This document shows positions 28,941-42,648 of a stretch of DNA of 64,000 nt, piece after piece (the stretch's first letter is position 1; every line of letters starts with the position of its first letter). Source of the DNA: Escherichia phage T4; the sequence record NC_000866.4; one strand, given 5' to 3'. The position numbers and the translations under genes were made by a program. The notes beneath the pieces were generated by a model. It did not search any database and had not been told where the DNA came from. It was given only the letters and a program-made list of their open reading frames with translations.

Positions 28941-29389
28941 TCAACAATCACAATTTCTAATTTAGAGGAATATGTATCTAAAATCCCCTCAATAATATCC
29001 CAGTTCCCTTTACCTATGCCTGCACCAATCCTAGGCATATAGATTGTAGGTTTAATCAGTTTATTTTCACCAAACTCATTTAATTCTAACATACAATTCA
29101 TTAAAGCGGAATACTCAAAATTTGGCCCTGGTTGAAATTGAGTATAAAGATTGAAGCAGTAAGCTTTATGAGTCCTAAAGTATTTTTCATAGACTGAGTA
29201 AGAACCGAGTTTAGTTACATCACCCCATTCAGTCTGTAATTTATCAGCTTCCAAAATTTTAGGGAAAGCTTTGGTTAATTGACCCGCTACGCCTGAACCC
29301 ATAGTATGAAAACAATTACATCCATGTGCAATATTTTTACCTTCAGCGAAAAGGGCGACAATATCGCCCTTGATATATTTTACAATCAT
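28922..29389 (-). CDS. macro-domain protein (tk.4-like)
   Basis: 155 aa; macro-domain-like motifs NIAHGCNCFHTMGSGVAGQL and PRIGAGIGKGNW. Confidence 0.7.
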   Translation of the reverse strand: MIVKYIKGDIVALFAEGKNIAHGCNCFHTMGSGVAGQLTKAFPKILEADKLQTEWGDVTKLGSYSVYEKYFRTHKAYCFNLYTQFQPGPNFEYSALMNCMLELNEFGENKLIKPTIYMPRIGAGIGKGNWDIIEGILDTYSSKLEIVIVDWEPLL

Positions 29390-29733
29390 CTAGTACTCAA
29401 TCCTCGATTATAAGAATCTACCAAACGGTCAACCATTGAATGACAAGCGGCTTTATCTTTCTCCTCCGCAACTGAACATTCTAAGGTATTCCACTTTTTA
29501 GCATATCGTTTTAACAATGTATCGTTTTTGTATCTGCTTGATTTATCTCTTTCTCCGTCTTTATATGCATATATTAATTTCTGTGCAAATTCAGCTTGGC
29601 ATGCCTTATTTTTCCCACAATAATCTGCCGCAGTGCGGTTTACATATTCTCTAATTTCAGTATATGATGTATCTGCTGACGCAGAAGCAGAAAATGAAAT
29701 TAATCCTATACATAAAACCAAAATTTTAGTCAT
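29386..29733 (-). CDS. vs: Vs, valyl-tRNA synthetase modifier
   Basis: 115 aa with signal-like N-terminus; size and position as T4 vs. Confidence 0.7.
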   Translation of the reverse strand: MTKILVLCIGLISFSASASADTSYTEIREYVNRTAADYCGKNKACQAEFAQKLIYAYKDGERDKSSRYKNDTLLKRYAKKWNTLECSVAEEKDKAACHSMVDRLVDSYNRGLSTR

Positions 29734-30271
29734 TTACTATTTCCAAAAGTTTATTATTTTTAAGGTAATTAGCCTTTTCTAGGACTTCAGAAGCATATTT
29801 AGAACCTGCTTTAACATTCCATCCCGAATTATAAGAGGATATTGCTTTTCTTATATCGCCCTTATGTATATTTAACCAATAAGAAAGTTCAATGTACGCC
29901 CAGGAAGCTGAATTGGATCGTTTATTCAACATTCTTTTTATTTCAGCATCGGTCATATTATAACCAAGTTCCTTAACTCTTGCTCGCATAGTAGGCAAAT
30001 AATTTTGGAACATTCCGTAGGCGTGATGCTTTGGTTTAGATTTTAAATTAACTCCGCCAGAGCTTTCTTGCCATAAAATGGCAGCCATTATATGACCTAA
30101 TCCGCTCTTGTGGATATTTTTGTGTGTTTTATATTTTCCATCCTTAGAAAATTGTTCCCCGAATTGATACGCGTAACGCATGTTATCGAGTTGGACATTA
30201 CTGAAAGTATGCTCGGAGCTATGTGCCATCATTGAAATGGCCAATAGACCAGCGAGTAGTGCTTTTCTCAT
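29726..30271 (-). CDS. secreted lytic-transglycosylase-like protein (vs.1-like)
   Basis: Signal peptide MRKALLAGLLAISMMAHS; SLT-like ES...GxxQ...SSYNSG motifs. Confidence 0.65.
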   Translation of the reverse strand: MRKALLAGLLAISMMAHSSEHTFSNVQLDNMRYAYQFGEQFSKDGKYKTHKNIHKSGLGHIMAAILWQESSGGVNLKSKPKHHAYGMFQNYLPTMRARVKELGYNMTDAEIKRMLNKRSNSASWAYIELSYWLNIHKGDIRKAISSYNSGWNVKAGSKYASEVLEKANYLKNNKLLEIVND

Positions 30272-30278
30272 GCTTACC

Positions 30279-30740
30279 TCATTGAGTTTTAATTACTGCT
30301 TTAGAAGCCTTTCCTGGTAAACGACGACTGTTGATAATTGCCATCCTACATTGAAGTGACGGGTCTTTGAACTTCTCGTTAGGTTTACAAACTGTAAATC
30401 CAAGCCAAAGATTTCCATCTGTGATTTCTAAACGTCCAGGACGATATTCAACCCCATCAATAAAATCCTCGTCAATGTCAGGACGCGGAGGCATACTCAG
30501 GAATTCATTAACTTCTAAAACATGGTCTTTTATTTTATGGAATAATTCAAAAACGTATGTCTCATCAATCTCCCGTTGAATTGCGCGATCAAGAAGATGT
30601 TGAGAATATTTTAGATGAAACGATGAGACTCCTGCTGCTTTTGATGCCTCACGAATCTCATTGTTAATTTGACGAAACTCCGACTCAAAGTGACGACGAA
30701 GCTTATTTCGACGGATAAAAACTTCTGTATTGATAGTCAT
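30279..30740 (-). CDS. regB: RegB site-specific endoribonuclease
   Basis: 153 aa; position and size as T4 regB; early promoter directly upstream. Confidence 0.85.
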   Translation of the reverse strand: MTINTEVFIRRNKLRRHFESEFRQINNEIREASKAAGVSSFHLKYSQHLLDRAIQREIDETYVFELFHKIKDHVLEVNEFLSMPPRPDIDEDFIDGVEYRPGRLEITDGNLWLGFTVCKPNEKFKDPSLQCRMAIINSRRLPGKASKAVIKTQ

Positions 30741-30767
30741 GTTATTCTCCTCTTAACTGATAGAAAA

Positions 30768-30797
30768 ATTATACCACAGTCAAGAGGAAAAGTAAAC
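30768..30797 (-). promoter_or_regulatory. T4-type early promoter of regB
   Basis: Minus strand GTTTAC-18-TATAAT then GAGGAG and regB ATG. Confidence 0.7.
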
Positions 30798-30799
30798 AG

Positions 30800-31120
30800 T
30801 TATTCTTTAAATCTAATCAATTTATTCATAGACTTTGAAACTTCGGCACGAACCTCATGTAGATTTTTGAGCTGTTCAAGACGCTGCGTATAGTAAGCAA
30901 TTTCATCTTCTTCGAGACAGTCCTGCGAATCTTCTTTAAGATAACGTGCATAGTCCTGGAAAGCGTTACGGACTACTTCCTGGAAGTCATCAAGACTTTG
31001 AATTTTCTTAGGAGCAACAGATACACGACGAGGGGCAGTATAATACTCATAACCAAACCCTGCGCTTAATTGAGCCATTAGTATTTTTCCTCTGGTTGGA
31101 ACACTGCACGACAAGCCCAC
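30800..31120 (-). CDS. hypothetical protein (vs.3-like)
   Basis: 106 aa ORF. Confidence 0.5.
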
Positions 31121-31380
31121 ATACTGGCTTCTTTGAGTTTCGTTTTAGCAATAGTTAACTGATCGAGACTTTCAGCATAATTCTTCGCGAATTCACAGTC
31201 TTCGCAATTATCTAGTGCTTCCCAGAATTCATCATATAAAGCATCAAAGATAAGTCCTAAACGAACTTCAGCGTCTTTAATAGCATTTACTTTACCGATT
31301 TTCTCTTCAGTATGTGGTTTATAACCCTTAATATCTTCAATCATATTTGACTTCCTCACCAGTACATAATACGTATTCAA
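31078..31380 (-). CDS. acb2: Vs.4-like protein, probable Acb2 cyclic-oligonucleotide sponge (anti-CBASS)
   Basis: About 90-100 aa ORF at the vs.4 position; T4 Vs.4 is the described Acb2; true start may be internal (MIEDIKGY). Confidence 0.6.
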
Positions 31381-31556
31381 CTAAACGAATAGGTTCATGA
31401 ATGCCATAGCCTTGAACAGAAATTTCTGTCGTAGGATAAATTCCATCAATATCACCCATATTCCACGCTTCATTAAATTGCTGTTCGCCTGAGTTACTAA
31501 ACCACTCGCGAAAGCATTTAGCACATCTTCAGAACCTTCAATAATTATCTTTGCCA

Positions 31557-31919
31557 TTACAAACTTTCAGTAAAGGTACGAGCGATAACGTCGCGCTGCT
31601 GTTCCGGAGTCAGAGAGTTAAAGCGAACTGCATAACCGGATACACGGATGGTCAGCTGCGGATATTTTTCCGGATGCTTAACTGCATCTTCCAGAGTTTC
31701 ATGACGCAGAACGTTAACGTTCAGGTGTTGACCACCTTCAATTTTAACTGTAGGTTGTGGCTCAATTTCAATTTCACGGGCATGCAAACCATAGAAAATT
31801 TCTGGGTCTACAAAAGAGTCCTCTTTAAAGGTTTTAGAGACAATAATTCGTGCTTGAATACCATCTTCAAAATAAATAGTACCTTTATGTGTGCCTTCAA
31901 GAATTTGATATGCTTTCAT
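31557..31919 (-). CDS. glycyl-radical spare-part protein (GrcA/YfiD-like, vs.6-like)
   Basis: 120 aa; C-terminus [59 protein letters not shown] carries glycyl-radical motif RVSGYA. Confidence 0.8.
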
Positions 31920-31926
31920 ATAAACC

Positions 31927-32307
31927 TCAATTAGAAAATAAATTTATCCAAGATTGTTCTTTAATTAAAAATGGCTCAGAATCATATGCCATTAAACTTT
32001 GCGTAATTAATCCTTTAAAAGGTCCATCAATAAATTCCATGGTAAAATATGGAATTTTATTCATTAGCCGTGCATTAGGAGCAGTGCACAAAACTCTGCA
32101 TCCTTTGAATACGCCTTTTTGTAATTTGTATTGCTTGGGATAAAATTCGCTCAAAATGTTATTTTTTGCCAAAATTTCAAAATGATTCACCAATTTATTT
32201 TTAATAGTTTTTGGCGAAAAATAAAGATATTCGAAAAGCTGAGTGTCTGTCATCATTGCATTCCGATTACGAAAAACTGTGGACGAGTAATACCACCAAT
32301 GCAACAT
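31927..32307 (-). CDS. hypothetical protein (vs.7-like)
   Basis: 126 aa ORF. Confidence 0.5.
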
Positions 32308-32912
32308 TTACTATTACAGCAGTAGTGTACGGTGTCAATATGGACACTATAAATCTTATCCATATCAGGAGATTTGACAGGCTCATCAATTATATACAAA
32401 ATTCGCGAAAGCTTTAAACCTCTGAACTTGCTTCCTTTATTACCAATAAAACTGCGTACAGAATCAGTAAATAAACGAAAACGTATATCATCATTAGAAT
32501 AACGCGAAAATTCCTTTTTGATGTTATTTGCAGAAATTTTAGCATAAGCTGAAGTATTAGAAAGAACAATAACTGTTCCGCCATCATACAACCAATTAGC
32601 AGCAAAGTTAGTCACAGCAATTGATTTACCGGATTGACGTCCACCATCTAGTCGAAGTGTACAATACTGTTTAAGTAAGTCTTCAAATGGCGGGATATAT
32701 TCGTTTTTACAAATTTCTTCTACTCTAGCATCAGAATGGTGTGTAAAAGCATTCATCAGGGATAGATAAGGACCAGTTAAAAATGTTCTCATTTCTTCTC
32801 TATAAGCTCTATAAGTTTGGGCCATTCCGTGGCACATGAATTGTCCATTTCTGTATTTACCCATTACCGCGCTTGGGCTCGACCTTATTACAGGTTGGCG
32901 GGAATCCCTCAT
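32253..32912 (-). CDS. hypothetical P-loop protein (vs.8-like)
   Basis: 219 aa; Walker A-like GGRQSGKS; start probably over-extended. Confidence 0.5.
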   Translation of the reverse strand: MRDSRQPVIRSSPSAVMGKYRNGQFMCHGMAQTYRAYREEMRTFLTGPYLSLMNAFTHHSDARVEEICKNEYIPPFEDLLKQYCTLRLDGGRQSGKSIAVTNFAANWLYDGGTVIVLSNTSAYAKISANNIKKEFSRYSNDDIRFRLFTDSVRSFIGNKGSKFRGLKLSRILYIIDEPVKSPDMDKIYSVHIDTVHYCCNSKCCIGGITRPQFFVIGMQ

Positions 32913-32938
32913 ATAATCATGAGGTCCAGGTTGTTCCC

Positions 32939-33355
32939 TTATGCATAAATCGCCTTACCGTAGTATTTGTACCAAGTAGGACGTTGTGCAATTTTTTCAT
33001 CTAAACGAGCTTGTGATATAGCAATAGAAGCTTCATGGGGAATATAATCACCACGGAATTCCTGAGGAATATCACTAATATCCTGGACTGTAGTATCCTT
33101 GATATTAAAACCACGTTTTAAACATTCAGCTATAAGCTCAATTTGACGTTTACGTAAGAACTCGAGCTTATCGTAAAAGAATGTAACATGACCTGCGCCA
33201 AGGATAAAAGTAGGACTGATTTTAAAATCACGAACACGTTTACCGTTAGCAACATGCTTACGAACTGCACCAAAAACACGCGGCAATTCACGATATTCAG
33301 CCATTAAGTGTTGGTCAGCCAATTCAGATACTAAAGTAAGGTTGATACGAGTCAT
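32939..33355 (-). CDS. denV: endonuclease V (pyrimidine dimer DNA glycosylase)
   Basis: 138 aa [28 protein letters not shown]...; matches T4 endo V. Confidence 0.95.
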
Positions 33356-33385
33356 TTTAGTGTTCTCCTGTAGTTGATAGGTCTA

Positions 33386-33414
33386 TAGTATCATACCTAC
33401 AGGAGATGTAAACT
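33386..33414 (-). promoter_or_regulatory. T4-type early promoter of denV
   Basis: Minus strand GTTTAC-17-TACTAT. Confidence 0.65.
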
Positions 33415-33415
33415 G

Positions 33416-33718
33416 TTATTTATCTTTAATTGCTTTAGCTGCTTCGATAGCCGCTTGCTGAAGGTCATCCATAGACATGCCGAACTTAGAAGCAAAGTTA
33501 TCAATTTTCTTTTCGACGGCATTCAAAGGCTTGGCCTGTTTACCTTCATTAGCGCCAGGAAGAGCGAGAATACGCTCTCTGTCAATATAAAGGCTTACAA
33601 GTTTCTTACGGTCTTTATCGGGCAAATCATGAAATGAATGGGCCTTTTTATTTACAGCGGCTTCTAATTTACCTGCGCCCACTCGCGCTTCGGCAATAAA
33701 TTCTTGATATGTTTTCAT
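33416..33718 (-). CDS. ipII: internal protein II
   Basis: 100 aa; N-terminus MKTYQEFIAEA shared with ipIII (capsid targeting sequence). Confidence 0.85.
   Translation of the reverse strand: MKTYQEFIAEARVGAGKLEAAVNKKAHSFHDLPDKDRKKLVSLYIDRERILALPGANEGKQAKPLNAVEKKIDNFASKFGMSMDDLQQAAIEAAKAIKDK

Positions 33719-41951: not shown

Positions 41952-42648
<697 letters not shown>

Follow-up and report, generated by a model that had tools for sequence, protein, structure and literature searches.

The early gene vs.4 (acb2) of bacteriophage T4: its start codon, its neighbours and the cyclic-dinucleotide sponge that it encodes

The 64,000-nucleotide stretch of DNA analysed here (the window; sequence record NC_000866.4) is bacteriophage T4, at genome positions of roughly 32-96 kb. 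The 2 kb at either end match T4 with 100% identity, at ~31,988 and ~95,979 of the resequenced genome (T4T). The gene of interest, vs.4, lies in a run of genes read from the minus strand, and the features that bear on its identity, its boundaries and its context are as follows.

29386..29733, minus strand: vs, part of the gene run
29726..30271, minus strand: vs.1, part of the gene run
30279..30740, minus strand: regB, part of the gene run
30740..30798, minus strand: strong RNA hairpin that separates vs.3 from regB (-23.1 kcal/mol, z = -4.75)
30800..31078, minus strand: vs.3, encoding TadIV-1, 92 aa, ATG at 31078..31076
31078..31344, minus strand: vs.4 (acb2) coding sequence of 88 codons, from its ATG (31344..31342) to its TAA stop (31080..31078)
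31345..31380, minus strand: 12-codon extension from a TTG, outside the vs.4 gene
31351..31357, minus strand: Shine-Dalgarno sequence GAGGAAG, as read from the sequence
31381..31557, minus strand: vs.5 as the window reads, 58 aa
31337..31557, minus strand: vs.5 with a missing base restored, 73 aa, ending at 31337 by alignment to T4T
31557..31919, minus strand: vs.6, a GrcA-like glycyl-radical cofactor gene (Pfam Gly_radical, 65.1 bits against a cut-off of 22.2)
31927..32256, minus strand: vs.7, annotated at 109 aa, with a mechanical ORF that reaches 32307
32253..32912, minus strand: mechanical ORF that contains vs.8, whose annotated start lies a few codons downstream
32939..33355, minus strand: denV, part of the gene run
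41952..42410, minus strand: acb1 (57B), Pfam PF23474 Acb1 at 202.7 bits, identical to gp57B of T4T

The product of vs.4, MIEDIKGY...QPEEKY, is an 88-residue protein of 10.2 kDa with a pI of 4.7, and a PDB search shows that it matches entry 7UQ2, 'Vs.4', at 88/88 residues (E = 1.9e-57). Because the product is identical to a solved protein, the assignment goes beyond mere family membership: this is T4 Vs.4/Acb2 itself, the T4 founding member and one of the two proteins that define the Acb2 family. Its sole Pfam match is to the Acb2/Tad1 hairpin (PF24729, Acb2_Tad1_hairpin), at 71.4 bits against a gathering cut-off of 27 bits and over profile positions 1-58 of 58. The product also matches PHROG 717 (113.6 bits, E = 2.3e-32), the group by which Jenson et al. 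defined Vs.4 homologues (PMC10097602). Similarity to the Acb2 of Pseudomonas phage PaMx33 (PDB 8H2J/8IXZ) is full-length but weak (E ~0.03 in the PDB search), and the phmmer alignment to that protein recovers the published residue pairs (Y11=Y8, K26=K23, R67=D61, T74=T68). The preliminary description of this DNA had named the product as T4 Vs.4, the Acb2 sponge, and had proposed two checks, alignment to Vs.4/Acb2 and binding of 3',3'-cGAMP by the purified protein; both are already in print for this sequence (PMC10097602, PMC10312549). The identification is borne out by the alignment, and the similarity to Acb2 is clearly significant.

The residues to which published work assigns a role are all in register. 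Those that contact cGAMP (Y8, H11, K23, R79 and F82), those at the hexamer interface (L29, F33, A66, A73 and A77) and those mutated in the original screen (T12, L60 and S74) are each present, and we found no difference from T4 Vs.4 at ligand or hexamer residues of the 88-residue product. Four residues, G7, Y8, K23 and R79, are invariant in an alignment of five sequences that includes PaMx33 Acb2. In the published structures Y8 and F82 stack on the bases, and H11, K23 and R79 contribute hydrogen bonds or salt bridges (PMC10097602, PMC10312549). Six copies of a 10.2-kDa chain give a calculated hexamer mass of ~61 kDa, to be set beside the published species of 59-62 kDa (PMC10097602).

In the literature vs.4 and acb2 are treated as one gene, and sequestration of cGAMP has been reported for the identical protein (PMC10097602; PMC12657218). 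The gene emerged from a T4 mutagenesis screen by Jenson et al., who found that its knockout costs the phage ~50-fold in titre on a Cap2-defective type II CBASS, that the protein binds 3',3'-cGAMP with a Kd of ~30 nM, that the hexamer holds three cGAMP molecules at its dimer interfaces, and that the activation of CapV by cGAMP is blocked by the protein, with pocket and interface mutants failing to do so (PMC10097602). Cao et al. measured a Kd of ~84 nM for the same ligand and observed no binding of cA3 or cAAG; a D61R mutant likewise failed to bind cA3, the absence of trinucleotide binding even in that mutant being ascribed to an unkinked pocket helix (PMC10312549). Where the preliminary description spoke of a cyclic-oligonucleotide sponge, the word sponge therefore stands, and the ligands narrow to dinucleotides.

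Taken together, these observations lead us to conclude, with a probability of about 0.97, that 31078..31344 is the T4 early gene vs.4 (acb2), which encodes a hexameric cyclic-dinucleotide sponge that blocks CBASS activation. Both the identification and the function were already known, and they add no new biology. The hexamer, its stoichiometry and affinities and the anti-CBASS and Panoptes phenotypes have been published for the identical protein, and should carry over to the product encoded here by virtue of sequence identity. In the mechanism that this work supports, the helical-hairpin protein would assemble as a hexamer with three pockets at its dimer interfaces, each accepting one cyclic dinucleotide. 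Within a pocket, Y8 and F82 would stack on the purine bases of the ligand while Y8, H11, K23 and R79 supply hydrogen bonds or salt bridges. Binding 3',3'-cGAMP at nanomolar affinity and leaving it uncleaved would hold free cGAMP under the threshold of CBASS effectors such as the phospholipase CapV, and with the effector unactivated the infected cell would avoid suicide and allow T4 to complete its cycle.

It is possible to read the same protein more broadly, as a general cyclic-dinucleotide sponge whose effect on fitness depends on the defences of the host, a benefit against CBASS and a liability against Panoptes. T4 Acb2 and PaMx33 Acb2 have the same broad range of dinucleotide ligands (PMC10312549). 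Sullivan et al. found that loss-of-function mutants of T4 in acb2/vs.4 escape Panoptes, that the protein binds the decoy 2',3'-c-di-AMP with a Kd of ~62 nM, that it is both required and sufficient for triggering the defence, and that Y8A and F82C abolish this effect (PMC12657218). Binding of a broad range of dinucleotides that includes 2',3'-c-di-AMP makes T4 Acb2 the trigger of this decoy-nucleotide defence. A disrupted allele in phage T2 fits the same reading. In the T2 gene (NC_054931) two base pairs are deleted at codon 8, a site corresponding to window positions 31323-31324, so that the ATG frame reads MIEDIKG-stop, and the annotated T2 vs.4 ORF begins 4 nt downstream, at a TTG, and is without Y8; the T2 acb2 mutation is mentioned in the Panoptes paper (PMC12657218). 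We consider the odds of this broader reading to be even. It extends the main explanation without contradicting it, and it leaves the identity of the gene unchanged.

The anti-CBASS sponge gene of our main reading has a well-marked start. An ORF at 31078-31380 had been reported from this DNA, and it is present at exactly those coordinates: in the ORF listing it runs along the minus strand for 100 aa from a TTG and ends in ...QPEEKY. The same account suggested that the true start might be the internal MIEDIKGY, and this proved correct. The true coding sequence of vs.4 is 31078..31344, from the ATG, and the 100-aa form is a mechanical maximum only. Upstream of the ATG stands GAGGAAG, with eight nucleotides between its GAGGA core and the start codon (AGTCAAAT). 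In the older T4 record X04567, 31351..31356 is annotated as the potential rRNA binding site of ORF 62.5 and 31078..31344 as 'ORF 62.5 (AA 1-88)', and T4T carries the identical coding sequence under the name vs.4. A tblastn search with the vs.4 product found homologues in 1,234 phage records, and nearly all of the homologues among the matches listed begin at query residue 1 or 2. Judged from these homologues and from its identity to a solved protein, vs.4 is a genuine gene, and a chance ORF is ruled out.

That the protein might instead be the 100-aa form, initiated at the TTG at 31380, is very improbable. In its favour, translation is permitted to begin at a TTG, and no stop interrupts the frame from 31380. 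However, this TTG is merely the first start codon past the stop of the upstream ORF (31381-31383), which it directly follows, and it lacks the Shine-Dalgarno sequence that the ATG possesses. The stretch 31345..31380 codes in the resequenced T4 for the C-terminus of Vs.5 in another frame, as alignment to T4T shows. Homologues from three diverged phages have annotated starts that line up with M1 of the 88-aa form. Published residue numbers all fit the 88-aa numbering, and the crystallised functional protein comprises residues 1-88 (PMC10097602). We therefore dropped the TTG in favour of the ATG at 31344, and the usable gene model for vs.4 ends at 31344, not at 31380.

Relatives beyond T4 and T2 bear on the start codon as well. 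In Enterobacter phage vB_EkoM5VN (395-676) and Klebsiella phage KpnM6E1 (395-676) the Acb2 homologue comes directly after grcA. In these Pseudotevenvirus and Jiaodavirus relatives vs.5 is absent and the start of the Acb2 homologue overlaps the grcA stop; since this is so for two homologue starts, an N-terminal extension is not conserved. No vs.3 is annotated in KpnM6E1, and a 66-aa ORF lies downstream of the Acb2 homologue in vB_EkoM5VN. Across the Acb2 homologues the N-terminal ~37 and C-terminal ~20 residues are nearly invariant, and the middle (T4 residues ~38-62) varies in sequence as well as in length. The preliminary description had placed vs.4 between vs.3 and the GrcA-like gene. The vs.3 side of this is right; the upstream neighbour in T4 is vs.5, and not the GrcA-like vs.6, direct adjacency to grcA being confined to the more distant relatives.

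The spurious extension appears to have its origin in the source of the sequence. Positions 30700-32000 are 100% identical to X04567 in a nucleotide comparison, a 1986 record entitled 'Bacteriophage T4 DNA for 58.3 to 65.5 kb early region', while complete T4 genomes are 99.6-99.7% identical to the same segment, with a one-base difference in length. Compared base by base, 30700-32000 departs from T4T at four places, three of which lie upstream of vs.4 in vs.5 and vs.6. The remaining one, a TA/AT swap at 31370-31371, falls within the 36 nt directly 5' of the vs.4 ATG. A T/C difference at 31702 exchanges H73R in Vs.6. After 31507 the window lacks a G (CTCG-CGAAA, against CTCGGCGAAA in T4T), and the base that is extra relative to the window is present in T2 also. 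To judge by these comparisons, the absent base is most likely a legacy sequencing error from 1986 that has been carried into the window sequence. Its loss leaves vs.5 frameshifted and truncated, and creates the spurious TTG extension of vs.4. This matters to anyone planning constructs or knockouts from the window sequence.

With the base restored, vs.5 overlaps the start of vs.4 by 8 nt (ATGATTGA). The 73-aa Vs.5 matches PHROG 1986 over its whole length (148.5 bits), and the 58-aa form matches profile positions 1-29 only, at 25.7 bits. In a Pfam scan of the neighbours, vs.6 alone gave a significant match: neither Vs.5 nor Vs.7 had any, and Vs.3 and Vs.8 fell below the cut-offs. The GrcA-like call for vs.6 agrees with the annotations of matching records. 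A PDB search with Vs.5 gave nothing of note; a match to SurE (E = 0.0086) we judged to be due to chance. Vs.5 is a small uncharacterised protein within a run of anti-defence genes.

The weakest of the alternatives, that the vs.4 product neutralises cGAMP enzymatically in the manner of the nuclease Acb1, is scarcely credible: T4 does encode such an enzyme (57B/Acb1, at 41952..42410), but the vs.4 product has no nuclease or 2H-phosphoesterase signature beside its single Acb2/Tad1 hairpin, cGAMP is intact in the crystal structure (PMC10097602), and HPLC shows that digestion of T4 Acb2 with proteinase K releases the nucleotide intact (PMC12657218). The mechanism is stoichiometric sequestration, with catalysis excluded by the published experiments on the identical protein.

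Immediately downstream, the ATG of vs.3 overlaps the TAA stop of vs.4 as TAATG (junction CCAGAGGAAAAATACTAATGGCT). The Vs.3 protein matches PDB entry 9WIW (phmmer, E = 2.6e-37), and T4 Vs.3 was reported in 2026 as TadIV-1, a sponge for N7-cADPR that overcomes type IV Thoeris (PMC13243611). Acb2 and TadIV-1, two unrelated sponges for immune signals, are stop-to-start neighbours. Because of the stop/start overlap, deletions and insertions in acb2, and the T2 frameshift, could affect the expression of TadIV-1, which is worth controlling for in defence assays with acb2 lesions.

Beyond vs.3, the hairpin at 30740..30798 folds better than any of 200 shuffles (0/200). Its loop contains TATAAT, within a promoter-like site at 30796..30768, and its 3' arm contains the Shine-Dalgarno sequence of regB (AAGAGGAG), just ahead of the regB ATG at 30740. 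In X04567 the hairpin is marked as inverted repeat D-D' and a potential terminator, and no U-run follows the stem. The vs.7-vs.3 gene run probably has its 3' boundary here. In scans of 30500-33600, promoter-like sites numbered 10, where 10.7 were expected, and terminator-like sites 2, where 1.8 were expected, counts that contribute no evidence of their own. Two of the promoter matches coincide with sites annotated in X04567, at 32418..32389 upstream of vs.7 and at 30796..30768 upstream of regB. The promoter scan being uninformative, the transcription unit follows the old annotation only. We infer that vs.4 is co-transcribed and translationally coupled with vs.5 and vs.3.

It is tempting to speculate further that vs.5, acb2 (vs.4) and tadIV-1 (vs.3) form one translationally chained anti-defence cassette. 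The idea springs from the two overlaps, the 8 nt of vs.5/vs.4 in the corrected sequence and the TAATG of vs.4/vs.3, and we consider it doubtful. The region of the vs.3 ribosome-binding site, folded over 31045-31165 on the minus strand, gives -24.6 kcal/mol (z = 0.05). This is no unusual structure, and it lends no support to an obligatory translational coupling of vs.3 to vs.4. If the cassette were real, acb2 lesions would be polar on the output of TadIV-1. Phage T2 encodes a functional TadIV-1 and is nevertheless sensitive to type IV Thoeris, a puzzle for which the authors tentatively suggest 'insufficient expression' (PMC13243611); T2 Vs.3 is identical to T4 Vs.3 at 91/92 residues. In such a cassette, a polar loss of TadIV-1 through the T2 acb2 frameshift could explain that sensitivity. 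The same argument would make the 73-aa Vs.5 a candidate for a third anti-defence protein.

Among known systems the closest is T4 Vs.4/Acb2 itself (PDB 7UQ2), to which the protein, at 88/88 residues, the gene position and the start codon are all identical. The gene shows no differences, and it is the flanking DNA of the window that follows the 1986 X04567 record. Tad1 (Thoeris anti-defence 1) has a hairpin domain in common with T4 Vs.4, captured by the same Pfam model. The signals that Tad1 chiefly sequesters are the gcADPR signals of Thoeris, and in the literature we found no report of T4 Vs.4 binding these. Tad1 has been described as likewise a multi-ligand sponge (PMC10680739).

PaMx33 Acb2 shares with the T4 protein the PF24729 fold family, the mechanism of a hexamer with three cyclic dinucleotides and the Tyr/Lys pair (Y11/K26, equivalent to Y8/K23), at an identity of ~24-27%. 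It differs in a second pocket, formed with R67/T74, that binds cA3 at nanomolar affinity, whereas T4 Acb2 has D61/T68 at these positions, an unkinked helix and no cA3 binding (PMC10312549). The Arg/Thr pair of the second pocket marks a broad-spectrum subgroup of Acb2 proteins (PaMx33 and JBD67, for example) and is missing in T4, where the alignment places D61/T68. These residues and the lack of cA3 binding make T4 Acb2 a dinucleotide-only member of the family.

The remaining comparisons are with other proteins of T4. TadIV-1 resembles Acb2 as a small two-helix nucleotide sponge, encoded by a gene that is joined to vs.4 by a stop/start overlap, but it has no sequence relationship to Acb2, and it forms a dimer, has a flexible N-terminal pocket and is specific for N7-cADPR. 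Acb1 (gp57B), the second anti-CBASS gene of T4, targets the same class of signal as Acb2; however, its product is an enzyme that degrades cyclic nucleotides and no sponge, with a fold unrelated to that of Acb2 (PF23474). Both anti-CBASS genes of T4, acb2 and acb1 (57B), lie inside the one window.
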